From positions 1-33,311 of IMG/VR virus record IMGVR_UViG_2778261498_000008: DNA of 33,311 nucleotides. One strand, 5' to 3'. The position numbers were made by a program, and so were the translations under genes. The DNA comes from a virus (taxonomy: Duplodnaviria; Heunggongvirae; Uroviricota; Caudoviricetes). Position 1 is the stretch's first letter. Each line of letters opens with the position of its first letter. The notes beneath the pieces were generated by a model. The model saw only the letters and a program-made list of their open reading frames with translations, did no database searches and had not been told where the DNA came from. This document shows positions 11,738-33,040 of the stretch, piece after piece.

Positions 11738-11764
11738 TGCACAATAGTGCACAAATTTGCACAA
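11738..11764. repeat. Three direct TGCACAA repeats phased at exactly 10 bp (11738, 11748, 11758)
   Basis: Read directly; helical phasing suggests a protein-binding array in the region expected to hold cos and packaging signals. Confidence 0.4.
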
Positions 11765-15977: not shown

Positions 15978-16000
15978 TAAGACAAAGGAGCAAATTTTTT

Positions 16001-17053: not shown

Positions 17054-17098
17054 TCAACTCACGGCGGGCATCATGCCCGCCTGTAACGGAGAGAAAGA

Positions 17099-17899
17099 AT
17101 GATTACCCCTGCACAGCAACACTGGCAGAACGTGATGGCGCAGCGCGCAGGCCGGGCGAATGAAGGCGTGGATCACGCCGCACGTACCGCGCATGAAGAG
17201 GTGCTGTATCGTCTGCGTCTGGCACAGGCCCGACTTAAGGGCGTACAGGCCAGAAGCGCCAAAGCCGCCATCAAAAAAGAGTTGTTACCGGACTTTTCCG
17301 GCTGGATTGAAGGAACGCTGGAGGCTGACGGCGGGCAGCAGGATGAGGTGATTGCCACGCTGATGGTGTGGGCGATTGACTGTGGCGATCTTCCGCTGGC
17401 ATTGCGTATTGGTGCGTATGTGGTCCGTCACAACCTCATCATGCCGGATAACTTTGGCCGTACTGCTGCCACAGTGCTGACCGAAGAAATCTGCAACCCG
17501 GTACTGACGCAGGCCGGGACGGATGCCGACGCGGATTTGTCCGCCTTTATCGAACCACTGGACACCCTCCGGGAGATTGTCACCGACCAGGATATGCCGG
17601 ACGAAGTACGCGCCAAATTATGCAAGGCGTGCGCCTTTGCCCGCCGTGGCCTGAGCGATGCGGACAGCATGGCCCTGTCACTGAAGCTGCTGCGCGAAGC
17701 GATGCACCTGAACCCGAACGCAGGTGTGAAACGCGAGATTGCAACCCTTTCCCGCGCCCTGAAAAAAGCCGATTCCGCAGCCGCCCCAGATGACGCCAGC
17801 GCACAGCAGGCGCAGGACGAAAGCAGCAAAAGTAAAAAGACAACGCGGAAGCCTGCAACACGAAAAACCACCGCGACGCAGAAGGCGAAGCGCGTTTAA
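17099..17899 (+). CDS. M: Terminase small (endonuclease) subunit (P2 gpM family)
   Basis: Position after N and length consistent with gpM; Ala-rich C-terminal tail. Confidence 0.85.
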   Translation: MITPAQQHWQNVMAQRAGRANEGVDHAARTAHEEVLYRLRLAQARLKGVQARSAKAAIKKELLPDFSGWIEGTLEADGGQQDEVIATLMVWAIDCGDLPLALRIGAYVVRHNLIMPDNFGRTAATVLTEEICNPVLTQAGTDADADLSAFIEPLDTLREIVTDQDMPDEVRAKLCKACAFARRGLSDADSMALSLKLLREAMHLNPNAGVKREIATLSRALKKADSAAAPDDASAQQAQDESSKSKKTTRKPATRKTTATQKAKRV

Positions 17900-18000
17900 C
17901 GACTGACCCCGTCAGCGGGCGGCGTGCACGGTGTTCCGGTTTGACTCCGTGACCGTTTACACCGCGCACCCACCGCCCGATTTTTTCAGGAGTGAACCCC

Positions 18001-18495
18001 ATGAGTATGGTTGCCAGAACTGACCCCAGACCCGCAGAGGACGACATCACCGATACCGATGATGGCGACACTCGCATTTCAGCGGGCGCATTCTGGCCGG
18101 ATATTGTGCTGCGAGATCTGCGTCTGGCGGTACGACTGCCGGGGCGTGTGACCACCTCCCGCCTGCTGCATACCGCCACCGGGGCCGTGGCACACGTTAT
18201 CCGCGAGCTGGAAGCGTGGCAGCAGGAACAGCAGGCGGCTGGCCATCAGACGCTGGCCGATGTTCCGGCACCCGTAATTAACGGAGAAAGCGTCAATCTC
18301 TGGCACTGGCGTAATGCCGTTTATACCGCCACACGCGCCCTGATTCTGGAGCGTTACCGCGATGCGGACACAACGGATAAAGGCGAGCGCCGGGCAGACG
18401 CACTGGACGCACAGGCTGCGGATCTGTGGCGCGATGTGAGCTGGGCCATCTCTGACATTCTGTGCCGCCCGCGAATCTTTGCGGAGTTGTGCTGA
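18001..18495 (+). CDS. L: Head completion/stabilisation protein (P2 gpL family)
   Basis: C-terminal LWRDVSWAISDILCRPRI matches the gpL pattern as recalled. ATG 18001 with AGGAG SD chosen; the track start at 17992 is a GTG. Confidence 0.85.
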   Translation: MSMVARTDPRPAEDDITDTDDGDTRISAGAFWPDIVLRDLRLAVRLPGRVTTSRLLHTATGAVAHVIRELEAWQQEQQAAGHQTLADVPAPVINGESVNLWHWRNAVYTATRALILERYRDADTTDKGERRADALDAQAADLWRDVSWAISDILCRPRIFAELC

Positions 18496-18695
18496 TGAAA
18501 GTGAAGGCACTGGAAGGCGACACCGTGGATTCGCTCTGTTTCCGGTACTACGGCACGACGCAGGGCGTCACCGAAAAGGTGCTGGATGCCAACCCCGGAC
18601 TCTGTCAGCAGGTATTTCTGGACGCCGGGCAGGAGGTGGAGATGCCGGAGCCGGAGAAGAAGAAACGAGAAATGATTCAGTTGTGGGGGGAGTAG
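18495..18695 (+). CDS. X: Tail protein X (P2 gpX family)
   Basis: 66-aa product MKVKALEGDTVDSLCFRYYGTTQGV...ANPGL matches P2 gpX as recalled; ATGA-coupled to L. Confidence 0.8.
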   Translation: MKVKALEGDTVDSLCFRYYGTTQGVTEKVLDANPGLCQQVFLDAGQEVEMPEPEKKKREMIQLWGE

Positions 18696-18697
18696 CA

Positions 18698-19021
18698 GTG
18701 AGCACCATTCAAACAGGGATCACAGAGCAGGTTATTGCGTGGCTCTTTGACCACCTGCCAACGGTGTATGCAGTAGGCGCGGCGGTCAGCATTTCCGCGC
18801 TGATGAGTCTTTATGACGGACGAACACTGGTTCAGACCGTAACGGGATCGCTGGCGTGCGGCGTTCTTGCCATGGCCGTGGCCGGGTCGTTGCGCTTCTT
18901 CGGGTTTCCTGAAGATGCCGTGACGTTTATCGGCGCATCAATCGGTTTTATGGGTGCAGAGAAAGCACGCGACAAGGTTATTGCGGCCTTTAATCGCAGG
19001 GTGAAGGAGAAGGACGAATGA
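18698..19021 (+). CDS. Putative holin
   Basis: Small protein with hydrophobic TM segments and a charged C-terminus, directly upstream of the endolysin. GTG start at 18698 with GGGGGA SD; the start codon is uncertain. Confidence 0.55.
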   Translation: MSTIQTGITEQVIAWLFDHLPTVYAVGAAVSISALMSLYDGRTLVQTVTGSLACGVLAMAVAGSLRFFGFPEDAVTFIGASIGFMGAEKARDKVIAAFNRRVKEKDE

Positions 19022-19410
19022 GCAACACATTTAAATTCAGCAGCCGGAGCGAAAAGAATTTGCAGGGCGTAAATCCTGATCTGGTGAAAGTGACCCGACG
19101 GGCACTGGAAATCTCGGAAGTGGATTTTGGTATCACCGAAGGGTTGCGCAGCCGTTACCGCCAGAAGCAACTGGTGGCCACGGGTAAGAGCCAGACCATG
19201 AACAGCCGCCACCTTACGGGGCATGCCGTGGATGTTGTGGCTTATATCGGCAGCCAGGTGTCATGGGAATGGCCGCTGTACGAAAAAATCGCAGCAGCAT
19301 TCAGACAGGCCAGCCGGGAACTGAATATTCCGGTGGAATGGGGCGGCGACTGGAAGACCCTGAAAGACGGACCGCATTTTCAGTTACCACACGGAGCCTA
19401 TCCGGCATGA
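19018..19410 (+). CDS. Endolysin, peptidase M15-like (Zn-dependent cell-wall peptidase)
   Basis: Contains SRHLTGHAVDV and a later His (HFQLPHG) resembling VanY/M15-type zinc-binding motifs; ATGA-coupled between holin and spanin genes. Confidence 0.7.
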   Translation: MSNTFKFSSRSEKNLQGVNPDLVKVTRRALEISEVDFGITEGLRSRYRQKQLVATGKSQTMNSRHLTGHAVDVVAYIGSQVSWEWPLYEKIAAAFRQASRELNIPVEWGGDWKTLKDGPHFQLPHGAYPA

Positions 19411-19814
19411 AGCTCTGGCCCACGCTGGGCGTCGCTTTCCTTCTGATTGCCGCATGGGGAACATCCATGCGTCTGTCGTGGTCGCTGGGCCGGGAGAACG
19501 CCAGAAACGAAGCGCAGGCCAGCGCCCTGAAAAGTACCGCCGACACCCTGAATATCATCAGCACCGGGGTACAGGATATGCAGCAGGTGCTGGCGCAACT
19601 CCGCGTGGAAAATCAACAGCGAAATCAGGACGGAGAGGCCAGACGTGAACAGCTACGCAACGATATTGCAAAAGATGAATGCGCCCACGCTTTGCCTGAC
19701 GCTCGTTTTACTGACAGGTTGCGCAGGCACGCAGAACGCGCCACGGCCAGCGCCGTCAGTCCGGCTTATACCGCAGACGCTGACCATACCAGTAATGCCT
19801 CCCCCCTTCCCTGA
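19407..19814 (+). CDS. Inner-membrane spanin component (Rz/LysB-like)
   Basis: N-terminal TM helix (MKLWPTLGVAFLLIAAW) followed by a charged coiled-coil-like region; overlapped in another frame by the o-spanin. Confidence 0.55.
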   Translation: MKLWPTLGVAFLLIAAWGTSMRLSWSLGRENARNEAQASALKSTADTLNIISTGVQDMQQVLAQLRVENQQRNQDGEARREQLRNDIAKDECAHALPDARFTDRLRRHAERATASAVSPAYTADADHTSNASPLP

Positions 19815-19965
19815 TACTCCCACATGGGGAAATCTCGGTATATGGGGCGACCGCCTTCTGGATGCACTGGAAACCTGTAACGCGGATAAACGGGCCATTG
19901 AATTACTGGAACAGCGCAGGCTGCAACGACTGAACAACGAGGACAACAACCATGCTGAAAACTGA
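19675..19965 (+). CDS. Outer-membrane lipoprotein spanin component (Rz1/LysC-like)
   Basis: Lipobox LLTGC followed by a proline-rich segment, partly embedded in the i-spanin gene. ATG 19675; an upstream in-frame GTG at 19645 is an alternative start. Confidence 0.55.
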   Translation: MNAPTLCLTLVLLTGCAGTQNAPRPAPSVRLIPQTLTIPVMPPPFPDTPTWGNLGIWGDRLLDALETCNADKRAIELLEQRRLQRLNNEDNNHAEN

Positions 19966-20419
19966 TTCCCTGCGTGAAGCCATGACCCGTTCATGCCGAT
20001 GGTGTCAGGCCAACCCGGAAAAATTCACCATTTTCGTGGAGAGCGGCAACATTGAAACGACCGGAGAAACGCCCTCGTTTGTTTACCGCTATCAGATGGT
20101 GATGTTTGTCATGGATTACGCCGGGGAGCTGGACGACCTCACGCTGCCGCTACTGGCGTGGTTATCCGAAAATCAGCCACAGTTGTTGCTCAATCCGGAG
20201 CGTAATCAGGACATCAAATTCTCCGCCGTTATCAATGACGATGACAGCGCCGATCTCCTGTTTACGCTCCCTCTGCAGGAACGCGTTCGCATCACGCGCA
20301 GCAGTCAGGGCACGCCGCAGGCAGAACACCTGCCGGAGCCAAAACCCCGCCTGCCATCTTCCGAAGGCGACTGGTCGCATGTATTCCAGGATGTGACGTG
20401 GGGTGAAAGCGATGGATAA
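19952..20419 (+). CDS. R: Tail completion protein (P2 gpR family)
   Basis: MLKTDSLREAMT N-terminus and LLAWLSENQP block match P2 gpR as recalled. Confidence 0.8.
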   Translation: MLKTDSLREAMTRSCRWCQANPEKFTIFVESGNIETTGETPSFVYRYQMVMFVMDYAGELDDLTLPLLAWLSENQPQLLLNPERNQDIKFSAVINDDDSADLLFTLPLQERVRITRSSQGTPQAEHLPEPKPRLPSSEGDWSHVFQDVTWGESDG

Positions 20420-21047
20420 GGCATTCACCCGCGTGGATGAAACCTTTGAGGCCATCCGCGACAGCCTGAATCAGCAGGCCATCAATAACATCGCCAGAAA
20501 GCTGGCACAGGATTTACGCCGCGCCCAGCAGGCGCGTATCCGGTCACAGAAAGCGCCGGACGGGACCGCGTGGACACCACGCAGACGCCGCGTAACCCGG
20601 ATACAGGAACGCATTCGCTTTATCTGGAATAACGAAGCACGCACGCTGAAAAACTGGCATCACGACACGGGGAAATACGGGCGAACCATTACCGGGTGGG
20701 ATGAGGATAAAAATAATATCCGCACGTTTTACCGGGATGACATCGACCGTTTTCTGGAAATACGCACCCGGCGCATCAACCAGGACAGCACAAAGCGCGT
20801 CCCCATGTTCGTAAAACTGCGCACCGCCCGCTACCTGAAAGCCCGTGCAGATGCTTCCGGTGTGACGGTGGGTTACAGCGGCGTGGCCGCACGTATTGCC
20901 CGCGTTCATCAGTTCGGTGAGCGCGATCAGGTTGCGCCGGGCATTTTCACCGATTACCCGGTACGTGAGCTGTTGGGTATCAGCCAGGCAGATGAGCGCC
21001 TGATTTATAACACGGTGCTGGGCCGGATTGCGGAGGCTGTACGGTGA
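20412..21047 (+). CDS. S: Tail completion / virion morphogenesis protein (P2 gpS family)
   Basis: Follows R with an 8-nt overlap; ATG 20412 (track start 20403 is GTG). Longer than P2 gpS as recalled. Confidence 0.75.
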   Translation: MDKAFTRVDETFEAIRDSLNQQAINNIARKLAQDLRRAQQARIRSQKAPDGTAWTPRRRRVTRIQERIRFIWNNEARTLKNWHHDTGKYGRTITGWDEDKNNIRTFYRDDIDRFLEIRTRRINQDSTKRVPMFVKLRTARYLKARADASGVTVGYSGVAARIARVHQFGERDQVAPGIFTDYPVRELLGISQADERLIYNTVLGRIAEAVR

Positions 21048-21625
21048 GCGCAGAACTCATGCGACTGCTGAGCAATATCATCCGCACCGGGATCATCTCT
21101 GAAGTTGATGAGAAGTCCTGGCGCGTGCGCGTTCGCAGCGGCGAACTGGAAACAGGCTGGCTGCGCTGGAACACCACGCGCGCGGGAGCCTTCAATGTGT
21201 GGCTGCCGCCATCACCAGGCGAACAGGTGGTAATTGCCTGCATTGGCGGCAACCCGGAAACCGCCATGATAATTGGCAGCCTGTGGAGTGATGCCAATCC
21301 GGCACCCGGCAAAAGCCTGAAAGAAATCGTGATCAGCGCGCCGGACGGCGCGGTGTTCCGCTACGACGCGGACGCTGGCGCACTGAGCGCCAGCGGCATG
21401 AAAACGGCCACTTTACAGGCATCCGTCAGCGTGAAACTGGATACGCCCGTCGTGGAATGCACAAACCTTCTGAGAACGGCGACGCTTGACGTCACAAAAG
21501 GAGGAAAGATGAGCGGCAATATCACGCACAGCGGCGGCAACTTCACCTCAAACGGCATTACCGTGCATACGCATAAACACGGTGGCGTGAAAGGCGGCAG
21601 CGATTCGACAGGAGGCCCGCAGTGA
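21044..21625 (+). CDS. V: Baseplate spike protein (P2 gpV family)
   Basis: IIRTGIISEVD and C-terminal GNITHSGGNFTSNGITVHTHKHGG match gpV as recalled. GTG start at 21044; ATG at 21059 is an alternative. Confidence 0.85.
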   Translation: MSAELMRLLSNIIRTGIISEVDEKSWRVRVRSGELETGWLRWNTTRAGAFNVWLPPSPGEQVVIACIGGNPETAMIIGSLWSDANPAPGKSLKEIVISAPDGAVFRYDADAGALSASGMKTATLQASVSVKLDTPVVECTNLLRTATLDVTKGGKMSGNITHSGGNFTSNGITVHTHKHGGVKGGSDSTGGPQ

Positions 21626-21972
21626 CAACCCGCTACACAGGAATGAACCCGGACGGGACGGGAAACCTGAACGATATGGAGCACCTGAAACAGTCAGTCA
21701 GGGACATCCTGACCACCCCGCTGGCAAGCCGGGTTATGCGACGGGAATATGGCAGCCTTGTGCCTGATTTGATTGACGAACCCATGAATAACACCACGCG
21801 TCTGCAATGCATGAGTGCTGCCGTGATTGCGCTGACACGATGGGAACCCCGCATTGCCCTGGACGCCATCGACGTTGTCTGGAAAGCGGGAGGCCGCGCC
21901 GGGGTGACGCTGTCGGGCACTGTCATGCAGACCATGCAGAATGTTGAATTAACCATCACGCTGAGGGAGTAA
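21622..21972 (+). CDS. W: Baseplate wedge protein (P2 gpW family)
   Basis: MTTRYTGMN...RVMRREYGSL matches P2 gpW as recalled; GTG start with AGGAGG SD. Confidence 0.85.
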   Translation: MTTRYTGMNPDGTGNLNDMEHLKQSVRDILTTPLASRVMRREYGSLVPDLIDEPMNNTTRLQCMSAAVIALTRWEPRIALDAIDVVWKAGGRAGVTLSGTVMQTMQNVELTITLRE

Positions 21973-21975
21973 ATC

Positions 21976-22872
21976 ATGCCCGCCGTTGACCTTTCACAGT
22001 TACCGGAACCCGCCATCATCGCGGAGCCTGACTTTGAGGCAATTCTGGCTGACACAAAGGCCATGATGATTGCGTCCTATCCTGCCGAACAGCGTGAAGC
22101 CGTCTCCGCCGCGCTGGAGCTGGAATCGGAACCCCTGAACGTTATCGCTCAAACCATGTCTTTTCGTGAAATGCTGTTACGCCAGCGGGTTAACGAGGGC
22201 GCACGCGCCTGCATGTTAAGCCACGGTTCAGGGACAAACCTGGACAACCTCGCGGGCAATATGAACACAAAGCGCCTGGTTATCACTCCGGCAACGGATA
22301 CCACCGACGCGGTGATGGAGAGCGACACCTCGCTGAGATTGCGGGCGCAACGGGCGTATGACGGCCTGAGTGTTGCTGGCCCGTCAGGTGCATACGAGTA
22401 TTTTGCACGCAGCGCCAGCGGTCTGGTGCGTGATGCGCGGGCCATCAGCCCGTCTCCGGCCTGTGTGACGGTCTCCATCCTGTCCACTGAAGGCGACGGC
22501 ACAGCAACGGAGGCGTTGCTTAATACCGTTCGCGCCGTTCTGAATGCAGAGGATACCCGCCCGGTGGCCGACCGCCTGACCGTACAGAGCGCCAGAATCG
22601 TGACATGGCGGCTGAATGCAAAACTGTACTTTTACCCCGGCCCGGAATCTGAACCTATTCTTGCGGCGGCGGAATCGTCGTTCAGGAAGTGGCTGGCTGA
22701 GCAGGGGCTTATCGGTCAGGACGTGGCGTTGTCCGCCATTGCTGCCGCACTGCATGTGCACGGAGTGCAGCGTGTGGAGATAACCGAACCCACGCAGAAC
22801 ATAGTTATCAGCGACACCCAGGCAGCGCGCTGTGAGTCATTCAGTATCAGCGAGGGCGGGCGCAATGAGTGA
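21976..22872 (+). CDS. J: Baseplate protein (P2 gpJ family)
   Basis: 298-aa product in the V-W-J-I order, length as P2 gpJ. Confidence 0.85.
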   Translation: MPAVDLSQLPEPAIIAEPDFEAILADTKAMMIASYPAEQREAVSAALELESEPLNVIAQTMSFREMLLRQRVNEGARACMLSHGSGTNLDNLAGNMNTKRLVITPATDTTDAVMESDTSLRLRAQRAYDGLSVAGPSGAYEYFARSASGLVRDARAISPSPACVTVSILSTEGDGTATEALLNTVRAVLNAEDTRPVADRLTVQSARIVTWRLNAKLYFYPGPESEPILAAAESSFRKWLAEQGLIGQDVALSAIAAALHVHGVQRVEITEPTQNIVISDTQAARCESFSISEGGRNE

Positions 22873-23395
22873 TTCGCTGTTACCGCCATCAGCCAGTAAT
22901 TTCATGCGTTGTGCCGAAGCCGTCGGAACACGCATTACAGGCATTCCGGTAGACCTCAATACGCTGTGGTCGCCGGACACCTGCCCGGTGCATCTGCTGC
23001 CCTATCTCGCCTGGGCGTTTTCCGTTGACCGCTGGGATCGCAACTGGCCGGAAGAGACAAAGCGACAGGTGATTCGTGACGCATGGCTGATACACCGACA
23101 CAAAGGGACCATCAGCGCACTGCGCCGGGCCATTGAGCCGCTGGGATACCTCATTCGCGTGTCTGAATGGTGGGAGTTCGGCGGGGAACCGGGAACATTT
23201 ACCGTTGAAGTCGGCACACTGGACAGCGGCGTGACGGAGGAAATGTATCTGGAAATGGAGCGGTTGATTGCTGATGCCCGCCCGGTCAGCCGCCACCTGA
23301 CAGGGCTGAATCTCATTCAGGAGATCCAGGGGGATATTTTTGCGGCGGCAGCAACTTACGACGGTGAAGTCACCACCATTTATCCGGACGATTAA
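22865..23395 (+). CDS. I: Baseplate protein (P2 gpI family)
   Basis: Strong match to P2 gpI as recalled (LLPYLAWAFSVDRWD, HKGTI, WWEFGGEPGTF, EMERLIADA). ATG 22865 overlaps the J stop. Confidence 0.9.
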   Translation: MSDSLLPPSASNFMRCAEAVGTRITGIPVDLNTLWSPDTCPVHLLPYLAWAFSVDRWDRNWPEETKRQVIRDAWLIHRHKGTISALRRAIEPLGYLIRVSEWWEFGGEPGTFTVEVGTLDSGVTEEMYLEMERLIADARPVSRHLTGLNLIQEIQGDIFAAAATYDGEVTTIYPDD

Positions 23396-23397
23396 GC

Positions 23398-24762
23398 ATG
23401 AGTACCACGATACGAAAATTTAAAACCATTATCACTGATACTGGTGCCAAAAAATTAGCTCAGGCAGCCGCGCCAGATGGTAAGCCAGTCCGCCTGACAC
23501 ATATGGCCGTGGGCGACGGTGGCGGCACGTTGCCCACACCAGACAGCAAGCAGACCCACCTTGTGCATGAGGTGTGGAGACATACCGTTAATCGCATCAC
23601 CCAGGACACAACACATCAGAACCGCATTATTGCGGAGCTGGTTATTCCCCCTGAAACGGGCGGATTCTGGATCCGGGAAATTGGTGTATTTGATGAGCAC
23701 GGCGATTTGATCGCGGTGGGCAATACTGCCGAAAGTTACAAGCCAACCGTTGCCGAAGGGTCCGGACGTGCACAAACATTCCGCATAATTCTGTCCATAT
23801 CCACTGCAGCAATAGTGGAACTGACGATAGACAAAAGCACAGCGATGGCCTCCATGGATTACGTGGATGAAGCAATCAAAGAACACGAAAAATCCCGTAA
23901 TCACCCTGACGCAACCCTGTCAGAAAAAGGTTTTGTCAGACTTAGTAATGATACTGACAGTGACAGCGAGACAGAAGCCGCAACCCCTGCCGCTATAAAG
24001 AAGGCTATAAAAATTGCAAGTGAAAAATTTACCGTACAGGACGCAACCACAACACAAAAAGGTATTGTTCAGTTAAGTAACGATACTGACAGTGAAAGCG
24101 AAACAGAAGCTGCAACTCCCAAAGCAGTCAAGGCTGCATATGACCTGGCCGACGGGAAATATACTGCGCAGGATGCCACCACGACACAAAAAGGTATTGT
24201 TCAGTTAAGTAGCGATACTGACAGTGAAAGCGAAACGGAAGCTGCCACACCAAAGGCGGTTAAGGCGATTAAAGCTGCTCTTGATAAAAAACAACCACTG
24301 AATGACATGCTGACGGCACTAAGTAAATTAATGCCTGCCGGAAATGCATTTCCGTATTTTGACGCGGATAAAAAGATTAGTCTGGCAAGCATTTCAGAAA
24401 TTGCCAGACAGTTTATTTCGCTCGATACACTCTATTCCATGCAGGAATTTCTGGTGACGCCTGATCTAATAGCAAGGCGAATCAGATCGCATAGTGCGAC
24501 CTTTGAACCTGATGTTGGTAATGTATTTCTTGCCGCATATATGAGGCCAGCAGATGATTTCACTATGACAGCCCGTGGCCGCATGGTAGATGGTCGTTAT
24601 TTAAGGGATATTAATATTGAATTAAAGCCCGACATGAAAACGCTGATATTTAATGTTGATGATATTGGTACAAGCTCATTCCCTGGCAGTTACGCTGCAC
24701 TGTACGGATATATAGGTGCAATAACCGGATACGAAATTGGCCTCTTTATCAGATTCGCATAA
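23398..24762 (+). CDS. H: Tail fibre protein (P2 gpH-like N-terminus, fibre repeats, divergent C-terminal domain)
   Basis: Conserved N-terminal baseplate-attachment region, three tandem copies of the phage tail-fibre repeat (QKGIVQLSxDTDSESETEAATPKAVK), then an AT-rich distinct C-terminal domain. 454 aa, shorter than P2 gpH as recalled. Confidence 0.85.
   Translation: MSTTIRKFKTIITDTGAKKLAQAAAPDGKPVRLTHMAVGDGGGTLPTPDSKQTHLVHEVWRHTVNRITQDTTHQNRIIAELVIPPETGGFWIREIGVFDEHGDLIAVGNTAESYKPTVAEGSGRAQTFRIILSISTAAIVELTIDKSTAMASMDYVDEAIKEHEKSRNHPDATLSEKGFVRLSNDTDSDSETEAATPAAIKKAIKIASEKFTVQDATTTQKGIVQLSNDTDSESETEAATPKAVKAAYDLADGKYTAQDATTTQKGIVQLSSDTDSESETEAATPKAVKAIKAALDKKQPLNDMLTALSKLMPAGNAFPYFDADKKISLASISEIARQFISLDTLYSMQEFLVTPDLIARRIRSHSATFEPDVGNVFLAAYMRPADDFTMTARGRMVDGRYLRDINIELKPDMKTLIFNVDDIGTSSFPGSYAALYGYIGAITGYEIGLFIRFA
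23923..24300 (+). repeat. Three tandem ~132-bp (44-codon) repeats inside the tail-fibre gene
   Basis: Units begin at about 23923, 24055 and 24187 with near-identical DNA (ggtattgttcagttaagt...gatactgacagtgaaagcgaaac). Confidence 0.7.
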
Positions 24763-24782
24763 TGAAAAAGGTGGTTAGATAG

Positions 24783-25358
24783 ATGAATATTTTGTCAATT
24801 AAAAATCCGGTTTACATATCTCATGACGCGATCAGTTGTCAGGTGTTGTTTGAAGGGGAAACAGAGTTTATCCCATACACCGCAACCGCCACAGATACCG
24901 CAGCAACAGGCCGGGCCGTCTGGCAGGCGCTTCAGGATGGCCTTGCCGGAGAAATTGCACCGTTTGTGATGACAGAAGCGCAGCTGGAGCGCATCCGTCA
25001 GAGTAAGCATGATGAAATCAGTCGCTGGCGTGATGACCAGGAAAACGCCGGAATTATTTTTGAGTGGAATGGCCACCGCTGGGACGGTGGAAAAATTTCA
25101 CGAAGCCGCCTGGCACCGGTGATTGCTGTGGCACAGGCGGGTGCGCTTCCGGCGGGCTTTTTCTGGACTGACGCGGATAACCAGGACGTCACCCTCACGC
25201 CGGAAGAGCTGGTACAGCTGGACGCTGCCATGTTGCAGGCGATGGTTATCCGTGGTTTTCAGATACACGAACGCCAGCGGCAGATGAAAGAGGACGTGGC
25301 AGGACTGGACAGTGCCGACGCCGTTCGCCGTTATGTTGTGGGATGGGGCGATGAGTAA
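24783..25358 (+). CDS. Putative tail fibre assembly chaperone (gpG position)
   Basis: 191-aa ORF immediately downstream of the fibre gene; assigned by position and size; no sequence motif verified. Confidence 0.6.
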   Translation: MNILSIKNPVYISHDAISCQVLFEGETEFIPYTATATDTAATGRAVWQALQDGLAGEIAPFVMTEAQLERIRQSKHDEISRWRDDQENAGIIFEWNGHRWDGGKISRSRLAPVIAVAQAGALPAGFFWTDADNQDVTLTPEELVQLDAAMLQAMVIRGFQIHERQRQMKEDVAGLDSADAVRRYVVGWGDE

Positions 25359-25728
25359 ATTCACCACTCCTGCCGTGCTGGAAATGCTCGATGATTACCG
25401 CTGGCGACTGGTTGAGCCGTTTGAGTTCTGGCTGACGGATAACCCCGTGGATGTGATTGCGGTTCCTGCGGGGTATGTCACAGACCTTGCCAGCGTACCG
25501 CGCATTCTCTGGTCGGTATTTCCGCCACACGGTCGTTACGCCAAAGCGGCGATTATTCACGACTGGCTGTACGACAACGCGCTGCGGACAAAGCACGAAG
25601 CGGACAAGATATTTCTTGATGCGATGTGTGTACTGGGTGTTCCCCGCTGGCGCAGGATGCTGATGTATTGTGCGGTCAGATTGTTCGGACGGGGAAATTA
25701 CTTTCGGGAAAAAATTACCCACCTCTGA
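25351..25728 (+). CDS. DUF1353-like hypothetical protein at the Z/fun position
   Basis: 125-aa ORF overlapping the stop of the preceding gene; between the fibre module and the tail block where P2 carries Z/fun. Family assignment is from memory and weak. Confidence 0.5.
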   Translation: MSKFTTPAVLEMLDDYRWRLVEPFEFWLTDNPVDVIAVPAGYVTDLASVPRILWSVFPPHGRYAKAAIIHDWLYDNALRTKHEADKIFLDAMCVLGVPRWRRMLMYCAVRLFGRGNYFREKITHL

Positions 25729-25778
25729 AACTGAGATATAAAATGATTTTATATCAACAGGTTATTATGTGTGACAAT

Positions 25779-25801
25779 AAAGCGCGGATATACCGCGCTT
25801 T
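25779..25801. terminator. Perfect 9-bp hairpin AAAGCGCGG-atata-CCGCGCTTT between convergent genes
   Basis: Read directly; lies between the DUF1353-like gene (+) and gpU (-), flanked by A/T runs, so likely a bidirectional terminator. Confidence 0.55.
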
Positions 25802-25812
25802 CCAGTAATAAA

Positions 25813-26307
25813 TTAAAAAAAACCTTTTATCGCACCGGAGACACCATTCATAGCTGATGAAGCCCCACTCTTAAACCTGCTCAACATATCACTGAACGAT
25901 GAGGATTGCAGGCGTTCGCGCATGTCCTCATCACAGCGTTGCAGCGTCAGTGAAAATTCTATCTTTTTCGCCTTACCGTAGCGGTCAAATTCAGAGCGCG
26001 TAATATTCTGGCCGGTCAGAACATACATACCGTAGATTTGCCCAACACCATCAATCAGGGGCCACGGAAGCCCGGTATAGGCCTGCGTGGTTAACAGTGT
26101 AAGGGACACCTCACCGCCCGTAATTTCAGGGTAAAGCACACCGGAAAGCGTGATCTGATCTTCCCCTGCCCCGATATACTGCCAGCTTGCTGAACGGTTT
26201 ATCCGCTCATTCTTCACATGCCGCCAGCTCCTGCTCTGCTGCAACTGCTGATGAGGCAGCGTGCGCAGCTCAAAAACAAACATGCCGTAGATCATCATCA
26301 TGGTCAT
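25813..26307 (-). CDS. U: Tail protein U (P2 gpU family)
   Basis: ATG at 26305-26307 (MTMMMIYGMFVFE...), 7 nt downstream of the tape-measure stop on the same strand. The track ORF extends upstream over T in another frame and was trimmed. Confidence 0.8.
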   Translation of the reverse strand: MTMMMIYGMFVFELRTLPHQQLQQSRSWRHVKNERINRSASWQYIGAGEDQITLSGVLYPEITGGEVSLTLLTTQAYTGLPWPLIDGVGQIYGMYVLTGQNITRSEFDRYGKAKKIEFSLTLQRCDEDMRERLQSSSFSDMLSRFKSGASSAMNGVSGAIKGFF

Positions 26308-26314
26308 GACTCCT

Positions 26315-29134
26315 TTAATCTTTATCGTAGAAGCTACTACGTCCGGCACGCTCCCGGCGTTCCATTTCTGCCCTGACAGCCTCGCCAACCAACTTTGCCA
26401 GTTCGCGGGGTGTCTGTGTGACAACGTTATGAAGGTGAACATGAATTTCACCGCCAAATCTGGCTGGCTCCTGGCGGCGTGCATCTCCGCCACCGGATGG
26501 CACAACAGGGCGCCGGATGGCTTCTGCCACCTGTCCTGTCCCTGCGGCAACAACGGGCGGCAACGCCGGGGGTGGTGTAACGGTAACGGCTTGCGGAATG
26601 CTGACTGCCGGTGTGGCTTTACTGAGCCGCTCAACCTGACGTTCACGCCATTCACCACGAACGGCCAGCGCACGGGGCAGGTTCTTAAAGACAATATCGC
26701 CGGGACCGATGCGTTTTTTAGCGTCCTTTGCTTCATTCAGCAGGCCACCGGTGTTATCGGCAATTTTGCCAAGCCTGCGCATGGTTCCGGTATTGCCATC
26801 CGTAAGCGGTTTGTTGTCTTTGGGTTTATCGTCTTTTTTGTCGCCGGGTTTATCTGACGGGGCCGGGCTGGGAGTCCATGGTTTCTGAACCATTTTCTTG
26901 AGAGCAGGATCCCATTCCCACATCACAGGAGCCTTTGAAGCGTCCTCCATTTTTTTTCTCGCCCGCTCCGCTTCATCCGGAAGCACGCCCAGCTTCTCCA
27001 GTATCCATCCCAGCGTATCCAGCAACATTTTCGCAGGCGTCAGCACAAGCTCCAGCGCACCGCCAAGAACCCTGCCGAATACTTCGCCGGCACTGGTGCA
27101 TTGATCCAGTGTTTCCTTGCTGGATTCCATCGGTGACAGCAGTGACATGAACCAGTTAAACACCTGGCTGATACCACTGCCGATCATGTCGAAAATGGGG
27201 CTGAACTGTTCAAAGGTTTCACGCAGCGGGGTCAGCCGCTCCATAATTCCGCTGAACACCCCGGCAAAAAATGCCTTAATCGGGTCCCAGTATTTCCAGA
27301 TAAGAACAGCCGCAGCCACAAGAGCCGCCGCAATCAGGCCCACCGGACTGAACAACGCCCCGAGAGCACCACCCAGCAGGGAGACGGAGCCTGTCACCAT
27401 ACCCCACAGTGCAGGCAGCACCCGGACAACGTTCATGGAGCTGGTCAGAAGAGAAAAGCCCAGACGCAACGTGGCCAGCTTCCCGTAAAGCACGCCGATA
27501 ACCAGCGACAGGGAGCCCACCGTTGCCGTTGTTGCCAGCAGTGCACCGCCTGCGATCAGTAACTGGCGGGTGAGTGCCGGATGTGCCTGCGCCAGCGCTG
27601 TTACCTTTGCGACCACCCGCGTGAGCCACTGTGTGGCAGAACGCAGCGGCCCGTCAACCAGATCGGCAATGCGAATACGCAGCCCTTCCCATGCGCTGCC
27701 AAGTGATTTCAGGTCGCCGTCAAGGTTGTCAGCCATGACCTTTGCCGTGCGCTCTGCTTCACCACGTGCAGCTTCCAGTTCTTTTCTCAGTTTGGGTAAG
27801 GAGCCGTTACCCGCCGCGTCAACGAGGGCCATAAATGATGTGAAGGCCTCTTCCCCGGCGATATCCTTAAAGAACGATACCCGGTCAACTTCCCCGTATT
27901 TGCGGGTGGCTTTATAAAGGTCGGACAGCACATCCTCCATCGGGCGCATTTTGCCGTTCGCATCGGAGACAGATACCCCAAGCTCTTTCAGCGCCTCTGC
28001 TGCTGCCTTTGGAGGTGATGCCAGGCGGGAAAGGCTGGCACGCATCGCCGTCCCTGCATCGCTCCCCCTGATCCCCATATTCGCCAGCACGCCCGCCATC
28101 GCGGCAGCCTGTTCCAGCGATATCCCCAGCTTGCCCGCCACCGGCCCCGCGTATTTCATGGTTTCCCCCAGCGCGCGGAGGTCGGTATTGGTACGGGTGA
28201 ACGCGGCGGTAAGGGTATCGCCGACCCGATCCATCTGGTCAGCAGAAAGACCAAACTGCGTGAGAATATTTGAACCAATATCGGCAGTTTCGCCGAGGTC
28301 CATGCCGCTGGCCGTTGCCATGTTCAGCACACCAGGTAGCGCCGCCTGAATGGCCTCCGGCGTGAAGCCCGCCATGGCAAGAAATGCCTGACCACTGGCG
28401 GCATCGCCTGCGGTGAACTGCGTTTCAGAGCCGAGTTTTAACGCCTGTTCGCGCAGCGCCTTAAACTGCGGGCTGGTTTTGTCGATACGCGTCAGCGCCT
28501 GCACACGCGACATCTCTTTCCCGAACCCGATGGCGGGCTGCAGAAAGCGTCCGGCAGCATAGCCGCCGGCCACAGCGGCACCGACAGCCATCGCGCCGCC
28601 GGTTTTCAGTTTTCCGGCGGTTTCCTGCGCCCGTGAATAACGTTCACGCGCCTGCGTGACACGGGTCAGCGCCTGCCGTTCACGTTCAAGCTGATTGTTG
28701 TATTGTTCGGTGCGCCGGATAGCCTGCTGGATGGTGTTGTCGCTGCCCGTCAGGGAAATGCCATGGCGCTTCAGCTCTGCACCCAGCTCGCGCATTTTTT
28801 CTATTTCACGCGTGCGGGTTTCATTCAGGCGTTCAAGTCGGGTGCTTAACTGCTGCATCAGCTTTTGTTGTTTTTCGCTGAGCACTGTACCCGTGCGTTG
28901 TAACTGATTAAGGGCGTTAAGCTGGCGTCGTGCTTTCACGATGCCCGCATCCGCTTTACTGACAGCGTCACGGGCGCGCTCAAATGAACGCGCCTGACGC
29001 TCGAGATTTTTGATCGCCCCCTGCGTTCGCTGGATGGCGTCACCAAACTGCCCCATCAGGCGGCGGGCGTTTTCGGTAGGCCGGGTCAGCCTGTCAACAG
29101 CACTGAAAGCGACCCGGATATCAAGAGTCTTCAT
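26315..29134 (-). CDS. T: Tail tape measure protein (P2 gpT family)
   Basis: About 940 aa, Ala/Gly-rich with hydrophobic central segments, downstream of E/E'. ATG at 29132-29134 chosen; the track start at 29179 is a TTG. Confidence 0.85.
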   Translation of the reverse strand: MKTLDIRVAFSAVDRLTRPTENARRLMGQFGDAIQRTQGAIKNLERQARSFERARDAVSKADAGIVKARRQLNALNQLQRTGTVLSEKQQKLMQQLSTRLERLNETRTREIEKMRELGAELKRHGISLTGSDNTIQQAIRRTEQYNNQLERERQALTRVTQARERYSRAQETAGKLKTGGAMAVGAAVAGGYAAGRFLQPAIGFGKEMSRVQALTRIDKTSPQFKALREQALKLGSETQFTAGDAASGQAFLAMAGFTPEAIQAALPGVLNMATASGMDLGETADIGSNILTQFGLSADQMDRVGDTLTAAFTRTNTDLRALGETMKYAGPVAGKLGISLEQAAAMAGVLANMGIRGSDAGTAMRASLSRLASPPKAAAEALKELGVSVSDANGKMRPMEDVLSDLYKATRKYGEVDRVSFFKDIAGEEAFTSFMALVDAAGNGSLPKLRKELEAARGEAERTAKVMADNLDGDLKSLGSAWEGLRIRIADLVDGPLRSATQWLTRVVAKVTALAQAHPALTRQLLIAGGALLATTATVGSLSLVIGVLYGKLATLRLGFSLLTSSMNVVRVLPALWGMVTGSVSLLGGALGALFSPVGLIAAALVAAAVLIWKYWDPIKAFFAGVFSGIMERLTPLRETFEQFSPIFDMIGSGISQVFNWFMSLLSPMESSKETLDQCTSAGEVFGRVLGGALELVLTPAKMLLDTLGWILEKLGVLPDEAERARKKMEDASKAPVMWEWDPALKKMVQKPWTPSPAPSDKPGDKKDDKPKDNKPLTDGNTGTMRRLGKIADNTGGLLNEAKDAKKRIGPGDIVFKNLPRALAVRGEWRERQVERLSKATPAVSIPQAVTVTPPPALPPVVAAGTGQVAEAIRRPVVPSGGGDARRQEPARFGGEIHVHLHNVVTQTPRELAKLVGEAVRAEMERRERAGRSSFYDKD

Positions 29135-29659
29135 TGTCGGTATTCCCGCTACGAAGTGCCGCCCGCTCACGCCAGGCAACCACTTCGCCGGGGGACATCA
29201 TGAAGATTTCGGCGGGCGACCAGTTAAAAACAACGGCGATATCTGCCACAAGATCTTCGATGTGCTCAAAGCACACCAGGCTGATTACGCTGCCGTCTCC
29301 TGCGCGCTCTTCCCGCCAGAGTCCGGCTCGCTCATAAAATTTACGGCCACTGCACACAACTGGATAAAGTCGCGTGACGACATTTTTTTAAGCGTCACTT
29401 CATCCAGTCGCGGCGACGTCACGCGGGGCAACAGCGTGAACATGGCATCCGTTTTCAGATTCAGCACGTCAGTCAGTGACAGACCGCGCAGGGAACCAGC
29501 CTGCTCAATCGCCCCGGTGATTTCCACGTACGTGATTTTTTCACCGCCACGCTCAACCGGACGGAGCAGTTTTACGCCACGTTCAGCGGCTGCATCCTCA
29601 CCGGTCGCCACATCATCCGCCACGCTGTTATCACGGGTTTCAGTATCGGTGTTTTTCAT
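29121..29659 (-). CDS. E+E' fusion made by programmed -1 frameshift at an A7 run (plus-strand T7 at 29383-29389)
   Basis: The -1 frame is open from the A7 run to a stop at 29121-29123; in-frame reading is CTT AAA AAA ATG. Matches the conserved chaperone frameshift of P2-like tail operons. Confidence 0.55.
29285..29659 (-). CDS. E: Tail assembly chaperone E (P2 gpE family)
   Basis: 124-aa ORF with AGGAGA SD, between tube and tape-measure genes. Confidence 0.8.
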   Translation of the reverse strand: MKNTDTETRDNSVADDVATGEDAAAERGVKLLRPVERGGEKITYVEITGAIEQAGSLRGLSLTDVLNLKTDAMFTLLPRVTSPRLDEVTLKKMSSRDFIQLCAVAVNFMSEPDSGGKSAQETAA

Positions 29660-29713
29660 GGAGGTCTCCTTTTCAGTCAGAGGCGACGCACTGCGCCGCC
29701 TGCATATTACTTA

Positions 29714-30226
29714 TCAGCCAAGCCCGAGCGCGGAACGGATGCGATCGGGCACAATGTCCCTGCCGTCCTTGCGGTAAATGAAGTTCAGCAGGTCGATTTC
29801 CCAGACCGGACGATCGTCAACGCTCATCTTGTAGTAGGTGTTTTTGATGGTGTACGTGTGCGAGGTGGCTTCCCCCTGTTTGGCCTCCCCCGTATCAATT
29901 TCCGTCACACGTCCGCGCATCTCAACCTCATACAGTTCGCTTTCGTCGTCGGTGTAGTATTCACCGACAAAACGCAGCAGCGTCCCGTCAATGGTTCCGC
30001 CGTATTTGAGAAACAGGGCACGCACGGCGCCGCCCATCACAAAGCTGGCATCAAGTGCAGAATCGTCCAGACCGAGGTCGATACTGACCGCCCCCATCAT
30101 GCCACCGCCACGAAAACTCTCAGTCTTGCGCGTCAGTTTTGGCAAAGTGACAGACGTCACCTTACCCACTTCATTCTCGCCATCCACAAACAGCGTAAAA
30201 AAGCGAAGATTTTTTGGTACAGCCAT
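29714..30226 (-). CDS. FII: Tail tube protein (P2 gpFII family)
   Basis: 170-aa product with VTLPKLTRK and GRVTEIDTGEAKQGE blocks matching gpFII as recalled. Confidence 0.85.
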   Translation of the reverse strand: MAVPKNLRFFTLFVDGENEVGKVTSVTLPKLTRKTESFRGGGMMGAVSIDLGLDDSALDASFVMGGAVRALFLKYGGTIDGTLLRFVGEYYTDDESELYEVEMRGRVTEIDTGEAKQGEATSHTYTIKNTYYKMSVDDRPVWEIDLLNFIYRKDGRDIVPDRIRSALGLG

Positions 30227-31410
30227 TAAGCACCTCCCAGCACCGCAAAGGCAGGGCCAAAGAATTCATCTGTAAACGTCTGGTAAAGCTCCATGTCTTC
30301 CAGTGGCGGAGCGGGCGTGTATTTGTAGCGAATACGCACACGTCCCTGACGTAAATTCGTGGTGCCGTTATCCACCACGTCATACCAGCACTCCGCACCA
30401 ATCAGTTTCCCGGCAGTAACCAGCGAATCCAGTTTTGCCCTGATGGCGCTGATAACATCCTTCACGTTCGCAGGTGTCAGTGGACTGTCGATGGTTTCAA
30501 ACTGCGCTTCCGCAATTGAATCAGCCAGCACCTGTGCGGTTCGGGTATACACCTCAAAGATGTAGGCGTTCGTTTCCGGTGTGCGGTTGCCCCAGAAGCG
30601 GAACCCGTTGCGACGAATAATGGTCGTGATTTCTTTGTTGTTGAGGCTGTTGGCATCGCTGTCTTCGGCCTGCAACGACCAGAACACATGCCTGGACATC
30701 CCCAGCACATTTTTAACCGGAACGTTGGACAGCGATTTGTGCCAGCCCTGTTCATGGTCAATGTACGCACGAAGGCCGCACGCATAGGCAGGCGCGGGGA
30801 ACGTTTCGTTTTCGCCACTTTTCGGGTTGTAGGCGATGAAGTCCGGCCATAAGAGCATCACTTCACGTTCGTTGAATTTCTGGCGGTAGGTAATCGCTTC
30901 AGCCATCGTGTTACAGCCGTGACATGAGGCATACACAAATGCGCGCAGTTTACCCGCAATCACGCACAGGGATTTTGTCACCGCCTCCGTGTCCAGCTCC
31001 GGCGCGGCCAGAATACGCGGACGGTATCCGATGCTTTCATCCTGCTCTGCAACAAGCAGCGCATACATCCCCGTATAGCTGCCGTCATCCTCAGAACCAC
31101 CGATAACCAGTTGATCCTGCGTCTTTTCGTCTTCTTCTTTGTGTTCAGCCACGCGAACGACGATCACCTTTGTGCTCACCTGGTCTGCGATGGCCTTAAG
31201 CGCACGATAAAGCGTCCCCGTTGTTCCGCATTTTCCCAGCACGTCATTGACGCGGGTCAGCAGTGTGGGCTTGTTCAGCGGGAACAGCTTCGCGTCCGCA
31301 TCATCCGCCGTTGCCACGATACCGATAACGCTGGAATCAACATCGTTAATCGCTGTTACCAGGTCGGTATTTTCCGTAACACGGGCACCATGAAAACGAG
31401 TTTCACTCAT
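30226..31410 (-). CDS. FI: Tail sheath protein (P2 gpFI family)
   Basis: 394-aa product, length and position as gpFI; stop overlaps the FII start. Confidence 0.9.
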   Translation of the reverse strand: MSETRFHGARVTENTDLVTAINDVDSSVIGIVATADDADAKLFPLNKPTLLTRVNDVLGKCGTTGTLYRALKAIADQVSTKVIVVRVAEHKEEDEKTQDQLVIGGSEDDGSYTGMYALLVAEQDESIGYRPRILAAPELDTEAVTKSLCVIAGKLRAFVYASCHGCNTMAEAITYRQKFNEREVMLLWPDFIAYNPKSGENETFPAPAYACGLRAYIDHEQGWHKSLSNVPVKNVLGMSRHVFWSLQAEDSDANSLNNKEITTIIRRNGFRFWGNRTPETNAYIFEVYTRTAQVLADSIAEAQFETIDSPLTPANVKDVISAIRAKLDSLVTAGKLIGAECWYDVVDNGTTNLRQGRVRIRYKYTPAPPLEDMELYQTFTDEFFGPAFAVLGGA

Positions 31411-31567
31411 AGCTTCAGCCCCTTGTATCCGTTAAATGATTCGGCAACAATCATCACCCACCACGCGCGTAATCTCACCCCTGCGCCGTTCTCCCGCCAC
31501 GGCGACAACAAAAAGCAGTAACCCCCTCCGCACGCACATGCGACCATGCCACACAGGGAGGGAGCAG

Positions 31568-32677
31568 ATGACCGACACCACCATGCAATTGCTCAGTCAA
31601 GGCACAGACCCTGTAAAAATGCCGGATTTTGATATTCTCGCGGAGGGTAAAACGCTGTCAGGCGTGGCAGAGCGCCTGATGAGCCTGTCGCTGACCGACA
31701 ACCGGGGATTTGAGGCAGACCAGCTCACCATCACGCTGGATGATGCGGATGGTCAGTTGCAGCTACCGCCACGGGGCGCGCGCCTGAAGGTTCTCATTGG
31801 CTGGAAAGGCGAACCGCTGACAGAAAAAGGCACTTACATTGTTGATGAAATCGCTCACGAAGGACCGCCGGACAGGCTGACTGTTTCGGCCAGAAGCGCA
31901 GATTTTCGGGATGAATTTAACGTTAAACGTGAGGTGTCCTGGCATGATGTGACCGTTGAGCGTGTGGTATCCGCCATCGCTCATCGGTATGGTCTGAAAC
32001 CGCAAATCAGCGAAATGCTGATGGATATCGAAATCGACCACGCCGACCAGACCGAAGAAAGCGACATGTCCTTCCTTACGCGCATGGCGGAAATGCTGGG
32101 CGCAATCACCACGGTAAAAAGCGGCAATCTGTTATTCATCATGCCAGGTGGTGGCGTGAACGCACAGGGCCAGCCGTTGCCCTCGTTCGCCATTACACGC
32201 AGCAGCGGCGATCGCCATCAGTTCCGTATTGCTGACCGCGAGGCTTATACGGGGGTACGCGCCTACTGGCTTGATCTTAATTACGGGAAAAAGAAAAAAG
32301 TCAGCGTAAAACGCCGTAAACCGCCAAAACCCAAAAAGGAGAAAAGCAGCAGCCGTGAAGGTGATTATATGGAAGGCGCGGAAGGCAATGTGTTTGTGTT
32401 ACGCAAGACTTATCAGAACGAGCAGGCAGCAAGACGCGCAGCGGCGGCAAAGTGGCAGCAACTACAACGCGGAGCCGCAGCGTTCTCCATCACGCTGGCG
32501 CGTGGACGTGCAGAACTCTACCCCGAAATGCATGGCACGGTAACAGGATTTAAAAGCGAGATTGATAATCAGGACTGGATTATTGCAAAAGCGGAGCACT
32601 CTATTGATAACAGTGGCTTTACCACGCAGCTTGAGCTTGAAGCAAAAATCCCGGAATGGATAGCAGAAACAGAGTGA
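31568..32677 (+). CDS. D: Tail protein D (P2 gpD family)
   Basis: 369-aa product from ATG 31568 with GGGAGGGAG SD, directly upstream of ogr. Confidence 0.8.
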   Translation: MTDTTMQLLSQGTDPVKMPDFDILAEGKTLSGVAERLMSLSLTDNRGFEADQLTITLDDADGQLQLPPRGARLKVLIGWKGEPLTEKGTYIVDEIAHEGPPDRLTVSARSADFRDEFNVKREVSWHDVTVERVVSAIAHRYGLKPQISEMLMDIEIDHADQTEESDMSFLTRMAEMLGAITTVKSGNLLFIMPGGGVNAQGQPLPSFAITRSSGDRHQFRIADREAYTGVRAYWLDLNYGKKKKVSVKRRKPPKPKKEKSSSREGDYMEGAEGNVFVLRKTYQNEQAARRAAAAKWQQLQRGAAAFSITLARGRAELYPEMHGTVTGFKSEIDNQDWIIAKAEHSIDNSGFTTQLELEAKIPEWIAETE

Positions 32678-32719
32678 GCAACTTAGAATAGCGGCAGCAC
32701 CACGTTAAGGGAGGTCGCT

Positions 32720-32980: not shown

Positions 32981-33040
32981 CAGGCAGAATTGCCGGAGTA
33001 ACAAAAAAGCGATAGATTACGCGCGGGTGCCTTTCGGCTG

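Follow-up and report, generated by a model that had tools for sequence, protein, structure and literature searches.

The window analysed here, the complete 33,311-nucleotide (nt) stretch of IMG/VR virus record IMGVR_UViG_2778261498_000008 (positions 1 to 33,311), is an Escherichia coli prophage of the P88-like type (Xuanwuvirus, P2 family, Peduoviridae). We propose, with a probability of roughly 0.8, that its tail-fibre locus is a mosaic host-range module. Three genes on the plus strand make up this locus: a fibre gene (23398..24762; 454 amino acids [aa]), recognised from the list of open reading frames (ORFs), a PF12571 domain with three PF03406 repeats, and a match to P2 gpH; a DUF4376 gene (24783..25358; 191 aa; PF14301, phrog_1141), whose product is presumed to be a tail-fibre assembly chaperone or cap; and a DUF1353 gene (25351..25728; 125 aa from an ATG at 25351; PF07087, phrog_1158) of the TtaP-type family. 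The prophage lineage would have kept its own N-terminal fibre domain and acquired foreign sequence from about residue 135 onward, comprising repeats, linker, and tip. A first-pass annotation of 23398-25358 had suggested horizontal swapping of the host-range module, and the suggestion is borne out by direct comparison with P88, by identity with a plasmid, and by the rarity of the fibre and cassette arrangement, which is present in 4 of 5,426 complete E. coli genomes. That annotation stopped 370 nt short of the end of the cassette's third gene; the linked, TtaP-like DUF1353 gene was missed, as were the loss of an invertible switch and the partner plasmid, with which the prophage shares a 907-nt tract of identity.

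Megablast placed Escherichia phage P88 and its relatives nearest to the window. P88 has the same backbone, the same gene order V-W-J-I-H, and the same convergent tail operon, with DNA identity of 89-96% on the two sides of the locus; the blastn alignments run from 11738 to 24267 (96% overall) and from 25882 to 33311 (89%). The blastn limit of 24267 was considered as the left breakpoint and then replaced. Identity to P88, binned by 50 nt, stays at 0.86-1.00 as far as 23799 and drops to 0.56-0.82 beyond, across the repeats, which puts the end of close P88 identity at about 23800, near fibre residue 134; the lower range is family-level conservation. The P88-type N-terminal, or baseplate-attachment, part (23398..23800, plus strand) is the only fibre segment with some 90% or more nucleotide identity to P88. 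On the right side, the return to P88-like identity falls between 25850 and 25950, within the 3' end of gpU. Three complete E. coli genomes carry 23398-25728 at 100% identity, and a fourth carries it at 99.9% (the four being MIN10, 23CRST027, 23CRST031, and Br_167_kylling), and the stretches 23790-24100 and 25702-25881 consist of sequence found only in these four genomes.

Beyond the last alignable base, 4,237 bp of P88 are displaced. This P88 block encodes fibre residues 291-764, with a Gp34_trimer-like region, together with a Caudo_TAP Tfa, an inverted second Tfa, an inverted alternative tip (gp37_C-like), and a resolvase-type DNA invertase. P88 cix/gix-like crossover sites lie at ~23830-23860 and 26895-26926 of its locus (L003). 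Allowing up to 3 mismatches, the P88 crossover core has no match in the window, and there are no large inverted repeats in 23300-25800. Because the P88 block is gone and the crossover core has no match, the invertible host-range switch is wholly absent from the window. The P88 fibre is a known host-range determinant (PMC5285337), and the recombination proposed here would have displaced its long distal part, both Caudo_TAP chaperones, the inverted alternative tip, and the Cin/Gin-type invertase, turning a two-state, switchable host range into one fixed specificity. Compared with P88, then, the fibre diverges from about residue 135 and is unrelated from residue 291; DUF4376 and DUF1353 genes stand in place of the Caudo_TAP chaperones of P88 and P2; and the inverted alternative tip and Tfa, the invertase, and the crossover sites are gone. 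In the invertible segments of Mu (G), P1 (C), and the P88 type, constant and variable fibre sequence break at the same conserved linker as here, but those segments differ from the present locus, which has one fixed set of tip and chaperone and no inversion system.

Evidence of recent exchange comes from pMUB-MIN10-2, a P1-like phage-plasmid of 98 kb that resides in MIN10, a strain that is among the four carrying this prophage. The plasmid matches window 24025-25701 at 96.8%, with 14 mismatches in 24029-24096, none in 24097-25003, and 40 in 25004-25698. The 907-nt core with zero mismatches (24097..25003, plus strand) starts within repeat 2, runs on through repeat 3, linker, tip, and spacer, and takes in codons 1-74 of the DUF4376 gene. 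It coincides exactly with the parts that presumably determine specificity, the tip and the N-domain of the chaperone. Identity to the plasmid starts at 24025 and is perfect from 24097, which places the left recombination joint inside repeat 2. In amino acid sequence, the tip is 100% identical to its plasmid counterpart, the DUF4376 protein 97.9%, and the DUF1353 protein 98.3%. Megablast detected the core at 100% in 1 of 72,556 plasmids, and two other P1-like plasmids carry it at 92-94%. Because this tract is perfectly identical to that of a co-resident phage-plasmid, the exchange between prophage and plasmid appears to be very recent. The cassette would have arrived by homologous recombination between conserved flanks, with the fibre repeats on the left and the DUF4376 C-domain or sequence downstream of it on the right, and the tip and the chaperone N-domain would move as a unit. 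The DUF1353 gene would be translationally coupled to that of the chaperone.

Several features of the plasmids may be recorded alongside. The cassette of pMUB-MIN10-2 has as neighbours a lytic transglycosylase, a "bleomycin hydrolase," a holin, and odaE. The fibre of this plasmid (L002 5674-7726) is annotated as two overlapping coding sequences (CDS) with 6 and 3 Phage_fiber_2 repeats. In pHNBY4G-2 and pM121-2, which are related plasmids, the fibre is one CDS of 752 aa, and the split CDS suggests a frameshift or an assembly error inside the repeat array. TnpB-family RNA-guided endonuclease genes adjoin the fibre cassette in P1-like plasmids (L021 4755-5930, L022 5067-6242, and L002 12465-13673), in two of them directly after the DUF1353 gene.

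The fibre is built of four parts: an N-terminal domain of the P2 gpH/P88 type, three Phage_fiber_2 repeats, a KQPL...FPYF linker, and a rare tip of ~100 aa. PF12571, the phage tail-collar fibre N-terminal domain, covers residues 7-153 (23416-23856; E value, 2e-53), and BLASTP aligned the fibre to P2 gpH at 48% identity over residues 7-360, that is, over the N-terminal domain, repeats, and linker, with no similarity beyond residue 360. The gpH-like N terminus described in the first-pass annotation is therefore real, and so is the shortness of the fibre, which at 454 aa compares with 669 aa for gpH and 764 aa for the P88 fibre, a difference of 310 aa from the latter. We propose that the N-terminal domain attaches the fibre to the baseplate next to gpI and gpJ. 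P88 and P2 gpH share this domain with the window, as well as the Phage_fiber_2 repeats and the linker motif.

The shaft repeats (23893..24288, plus strand) comprise three 132-nt (44-aa) Phage_fiber_2 copies. A direct-repeat search found them in register at a spacing of 132 nt (23893-24024, 24025-24156, and 24157-24288), and Pfam recognised PF03406 in three stretches of the fibre (E value, 1.6e-50). Pairwise, the copies are 58-75% identical in nucleotides and 50-80% in amino acids; because they are too diverged, the 132-nt repeats go unlisted by Tandem Repeats Finder. The three tandem repeats had been noted in the first pass and are indeed present, but P88 also has three Phage_fiber_2 repeats, so they are not peculiar to this phage and their copy number does not distinguish it. 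The conserved linker that follows (24268..24456, plus strand; residues 291-353; ALDKKQPLN...FPYFD...) aligns to P2 gpH residues 318-387 and corresponds to the stretch just before the P88 cix/gix crossover site. It is a junction motif common to very many side and tail fibres and the sole matched part for nearly all hits in the phage collection and IMG/VR; in 77 of 80 IMG/VR loci the match is confined to query residues ~2-63 or extends up to 82/95, the linker region.

The C-terminal tip (24457..24759, plus strand; residues 354-454), which ends in a conserved GLFIRFA, is presumably the part that binds the receptor. Judged from database comparisons, it is a near-orphan domain: it has no Pfam match and no sequence match in the PDB, and tblastn of the tip against the phage collection matched only the linker. 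An exhaustive HMMER search of 1.84e9 representative proteins with residues 335-454 returned three proteins, namely, the fibre itself, a 99% copy that sits on a fibre with a different N terminus (P0123), and one weak match to a 3270-aa protein with leucine-rich and Listeria-Bacteroides repeats, which we judged uninformative. Two word-indexed protein searches with the tip returned 1 and 3 proteins. Distant relatives with 29-35% identity and a shared C-terminal LFIR motif occur in E. coli lambdoid Stf proteins (L009-11), in the fibre of a podovirus-like element that carries an SU10-type adaptor (P0125/L014), and in three IMG/VR contigs. A DUF4376 gene follows the tip in L009-11, in L014, and in two of the three contigs, while the third contig ends ~100 nt past the tip. 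Across the IMG/VR loci sharing the linker, 45 of 80 have a DUF4376 gene after the tip. In these 45 loci the DUF4376 gene usually lies ~960 nt after the linker start, versus 518 nt here, and so the tip belongs to a short class.

The DUF4376 gene begins 20 nt after the fibre stop codon. PF14301 is the sole Pfam match of its 191-aa product (residues 71-177; E value, 3.5e-20). Dissimilarity to P2 gpG had been part of the first-pass annotation and holds (BLASTP E value, 8.6; no match to PF02413, or Caudo_TAP), and the protein falls into a known family; P88's two Tfa proteins do match PF02413. Searches of PDB sequences with the fibre tip and the DUF4376 and DUF1353 proteins yielded chance-level matches only, none of them to Mu Tfa entries. 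The two chaperone families are linked architecturally by a Salmonella Mu-like prophage protein in which a weak Caudo_TAP N-terminal part is fused to a DUF4376 domain. Searched separately from the near-orphan tip, the DUF4376 protein has 892 homologues, mostly from E. coli, Salmonella, and Citrobacter, with 50-60% identity over the full length; mean identity is 48% in the variable N-domain (residues 1-65) versus 62% in the C-domain. An AlphaFold2 (AF2) model of the protein, with a predicted local distance difference test score (pLDDT) of 93.9, consists of a small N-terminal beta domain and then a helical domain with a beta-hairpin, and its fold matches in BFVD are DUF4376 proteins of myo-, sipho-, and podoviruses.

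Comparison with characterised members of the family leads us to presume that the DUF4376 protein is a tail-fibre chaperone. Experimental support for a chaperone role exists for V22 gp27, A5 gp9, and the product of the gene downstream of the CJIE1 H-fibre. These proteins and F341_034 have, like the protein here, a C-terminal PF14301 domain in a chain of ~180-240 aa. As here, they have a variable N-terminal part, are encoded directly after a short fibre gene, and belong to a cassette shared among morphologically unrelated phages. Short fibres are likewise paired with DUF4376 proteins in phages F341 (293 aa), KIRK (324 aa), and V22 (369 aa). The protein in the window differs from the tested chaperones in that it is only distantly related to them in sequence and in that its gene is coupled to a DUF1353 gene. 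The H-fibre of Campylobacter CJIE1 requires the downstream DUF4376 gene to function (PMC7882524), and in Alteromonas phage V22 the fibre becomes binding-competent only with the help of gp27, which is absent from the mature complex (PMC7289586). On this model, the DUF4376 N-domain would be matched to the tip, and the protein would help the fibre to trimerise from its C-terminal end and may cap it transiently.

The DUF1353 gene overlaps the DUF4376 stop codon by 8 nt, and its ATG at 25351 is backed by homologues that begin with MSKFTTP. PF07087 is present at full length (model positions 1-91 of 91; E value, 1e-32), and the product is probably a phospholipase A2 (PLA2). TtaP, the 125-aa DUF1353 protein of the typhoid toxin islet, is a PLA2 with catalytic residues H70 and D85 and an important D71, and it resembles prophage DUF1353 proteins (PMC11525133). 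The protein in the window has H70, D71, and D85, matched to those of TtaP by identical numbering at the same length. It is, like TtaP, a single-domain DUF1353 protein of 125 aa with His/Asp/Asp at 70/71/85, but it is encoded in a phage late operon behind a fibre chaperone and not in a toxin islet. Across 11 diverse members of the family (33-93% identity), the only invariant columns are D45, H70, D71, and D85. The published link of the family to group XIV secreted PLA2 is an HHpred profile-profile comparison.

PHROG 1158 and many phage records label DUF1353 a tail assembly chaperone, and the 8-nt overlap with the DUF4376 gene recurs on lambdoid, P1-like, and podovirus-like backbones. Both observations would suit a second, nonenzymatic fibre assembly factor in place of a phospholipase, an alternative that we consider unlikely. 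The labels appear to be positional, with no experiment found behind them, whereas three of the four invariant residues are the catalytic residues of TtaP, whose PLA2 activity has been measured. DUF1353 genes also occur away from fibre genes: in Salmonella phage gmqsjt-1 (L019 1852-3339), one lies after a lysozyme gene, a small ORF, and a DUF2514 gene, a lysis-cassette context, and others are found in jumbo-phage regions without tail genes. Moreover, the gene is missing from 23 of 24 distant DUF4376 loci. DUF1353 is an accessory that travels with this cassette subfamily and is not integral to the chaperone system; fibre, DUF4376, and DUF1353 as an obligate trio is ruled out by the same count.

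Other observations on the family can be added. One DUF1353 homologue was detected by mass spectrometry in a virion preparation that also held many nonstructural proteins. A search of genome contigs for DUF1353 recovered only two Bacteroidota loci and no S. bongori TtaP. NCBIfam and PADLOC returned no matches, and a reading as a defence system has no support in either. Eighteen IMG/VR viral contigs (L024-L103) end 3-24 nt after the DUF4376 gene; the called end of a prophage is often the fibre chaperone, which could cut off a following DUF1353 gene.

Related cassettes are present on other backbones, including lambdoid Stf loci (L004-6, L009-11), the podovirus-like element with the SU10-type adaptor (L014), and the fibre with a different N terminus (P0123). 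A Mu-like Salmonella prophage (L007/8) has the same DUF4376 and DUF1353 genes with a different tip, and the Francisella P2-like phage KIRK has the reported order I, H, DUF4376, DUF1353. Against L009, identity forms a gradient of 35% in the tip, 74% in the chaperone N-domain, 90% in the chaperone C-domain, and 93% in DUF1353. In the Salmonella Mu-like elements (L007 1886-6668 and L008), there are two DUF4376 genes, one with a weak Caudo_TAP-like N-terminal part, and DUF4376 and DUF1353 are separated by a hexapeptide-repeat acetyltransferase gene in the opposite orientation; 1886-3275 and 4030-5001 of L007 have no called gene. The E. coli lambdoid prophage L009 (5575-10111; GCA_001268365.1, CXYT01000013) carries Stf, DUF4376, and DUF1353 genes and then a partial DUF1353 gene (6425-6633). 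About 2 kb downstream lie cdtA/B/C, for cytolethal distending toxin, an arrangement that resembles the pairing of ttaP with cdtB in the typhoid toxin islet.

In some phages, proteins encoded behind the fibre remain on it: T2 gp38 sits on its fibre tip, and Mu Tfa stays bound to its fibre. The DUF4376 protein might similarly stay on the fibre as an adhesin or cap, with the short tip serving mainly as its docking site, although we regard this as rather improbable. In its favour, the tip is unusually short, at ~100 aa past the linker versus ~250-300 aa in most DUF4376-linked fibres; the PHROG family of the DUF4376 protein is labelled "tail fiber protein"; and the variable N-domain travelled together with the tip, both lying within the 907-nt identical tract. 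A transient cap role has also been proposed for gp9 of Alteromonas phage A5 and its relatives (PMC10579305). However, size-exclusion chromatography separated V22 gp27 from the mature fibre, which still bound without gp27 (PMC7289586). In addition, the DUF4376 N-domain (48% mean identity) is far less variable than the tip (35% or undetectable in the same pairs), the reverse of what would be expected of a specificity carrier.

It is very improbable that the short fibre is a decayed remnant in a cryptic prophage, left behind when a deletion removed the receptor-binding region and the invertible segment, despite its 310-aa deficit relative to P88, the disappearance of the invertase and the alternative cassette, and the annotation of the plasmid fibre gene as two overlapping CDS, for each of the three ORFs is intact, they lie close together or overlap, and a terminator hairpin follows them; the replaced block has different sequence and families and is not a P88 deletion derivative; two other backbones carry this tip at 99-100% identity; tip relatives at 30-35% keep the length class and the LFIR motif, each followed by DUF4376; and the other DUF4376-paired fibres, those of F341, KIRK, and V22, are short too.

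Base composition gives weak support for the swap. The guanine-plus-cytosine (GC) content is 0.537 for the whole window, 0.587 for gpV-gpI, 0.509 for the N-terminal part of the fibre, 0.455 for the fibre repeats, and 0.412 for 24268-24762 (0.345 at third codon positions), and it stands at 0.549 in the DUF4376 gene and 0.537 in the DUF1353 gene. In a sliding-window scan, the lowest 495-nt value in the 33 kb, 0.400 at 24326, falls in the fibre, ~2.9 standard deviations (SD) under the mean (mean, 0.538; SD, 0.047). The AT-rich C-terminal domain that the first-pass annotation described is thus visible, but its onset is not where the domain begins, as GC falls already in the repeats, and the chaperone gene is not AT-rich. 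The P1-like plasmid backbone has a GC content of 0.47, and the repeats and tip (0.41-0.46) are nearer to it than to the P88 backbone. Low GC alone is weak evidence of a swap because P88's own distal fibre and Tfa also lie at 0.43-0.48. GC content across the fibre gene is, in any case, uneven, and the tip and chaperone are not the usual pair in close relatives, as the count of 4 in 5,426 genomes indicates.

A number of observations weigh against the proposal of a swapped host-range module or against the functions that it assigns. Low GC is not confined to the swapped part, since the repeats and the distal fibre and Tfa of P88 are low as well. The flanks are equidistant (~94-96%) among three lineages, so that no direction can be inferred for the exchange between prophage and plasmid. 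Receptor binding by the tip is a prediction, and the AF2 monomer model of residues 290-454, derived from a 3-sequence alignment, is unusable (pLDDT, 40.8). The AF2 model of the DUF4376 protein is without an informative PDB relative, and its mechanism is drawn by homology to tested members that are distantly related. For DUF1353, the correspondence to TtaP is one of identical numbering and equal length, and neither phmmer nor a profile hmmsearch of PDB sequences recovered the group XIV PLA2 structures (1LWB, 4AUP). Finally, a DUF1353 gene is present in only 1 of the 24 more distant DUF4376 IMG/VR loci with room for one.

The surroundings of the locus conform to the P2 plan. Upstream of the fibre gene are homologues of gpV, gpW, gpJ, and gpI in the order V-W-J-I-H; the gpJ homologue (21976-22872; PF04865) is followed by the gpI homologue (22832-23395; PF09684), directly upstream of the fibre gene, which accordingly occupies the P2 gpH-type position straight after the baseplate genes J and I. 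From 25813 onward the opposite strand carries the genes for gpU, tape measure, tube, and sheath, an arrangement shared with P88. An AT-rich spacer (25729-25812) separates the convergent fibre and gpU/tail operons and contains a GC-rich 9-bp hairpin (25779-25801, both strands; AAAGCGCGG-ATATA-CCGCGCTTT), which is likely a bidirectional terminator. A simple terminator scan did not flag the hairpin, but it is supported by folding, with energies on the two strands of -14.5 and -15.6 kcal/mol (z scores, -3.3 and -3.7). The surrounding 180 nt (25702-25881) have no counterpart in P88 or in the plasmid.

Elsewhere in the window, the minus-strand ORF listed at 25813-26736 has 307 aa, much more than the 164 aa of the P88 gpU homologue, and runs into the end of the tape-measure ORF. 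Its extra length probably arose because the first in-frame start was taken. Three stretches are not collinear with P88 by blastn (1-1820, 5354-6042, and 9906-11738). They fall in the integrase end and in two regions of early or accessory genes, and they add to the mosaicism of the prophage.

The locus is a clear instance, though an ordinary one, of receptor-binding modules being traded between phages. The exchange of fibre modules has long been known, as have DUF4376 chaperones, and the locus is a well-resolved example that introduces no new principle. What it adds is resolution of the moving unit at the nucleotide level, as a tip and chaperone N-domain flanked by conserved repeats and the conserved DUF4376 domain, in what appears to be a very recent exchange between two unrelated temperate elements of one cell, a P2-family prophage and a P1-like phage-plasmid. 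It also shows that a fixed host range can take the place of a phase-variable, invertase-driven one. Together, the short fibre and the chaperone matched to it would make a compact candidate pair for retargeting P2-like phages or tailocins, and other DUF4376-dependent fibres have already been used in this way. Of most interest for further work is the DUF1353 gene, whose family has demonstrated PLA2 activity. It is a tentative idea, and one that may well prove wrong, that DUF1353 is an active PLA2 within a mobile host-range cassette and that ttaP derives from such a cassette next to cdt cargo. If so, the enzyme's target could be the envelope during infection or the outer membrane during lysis.

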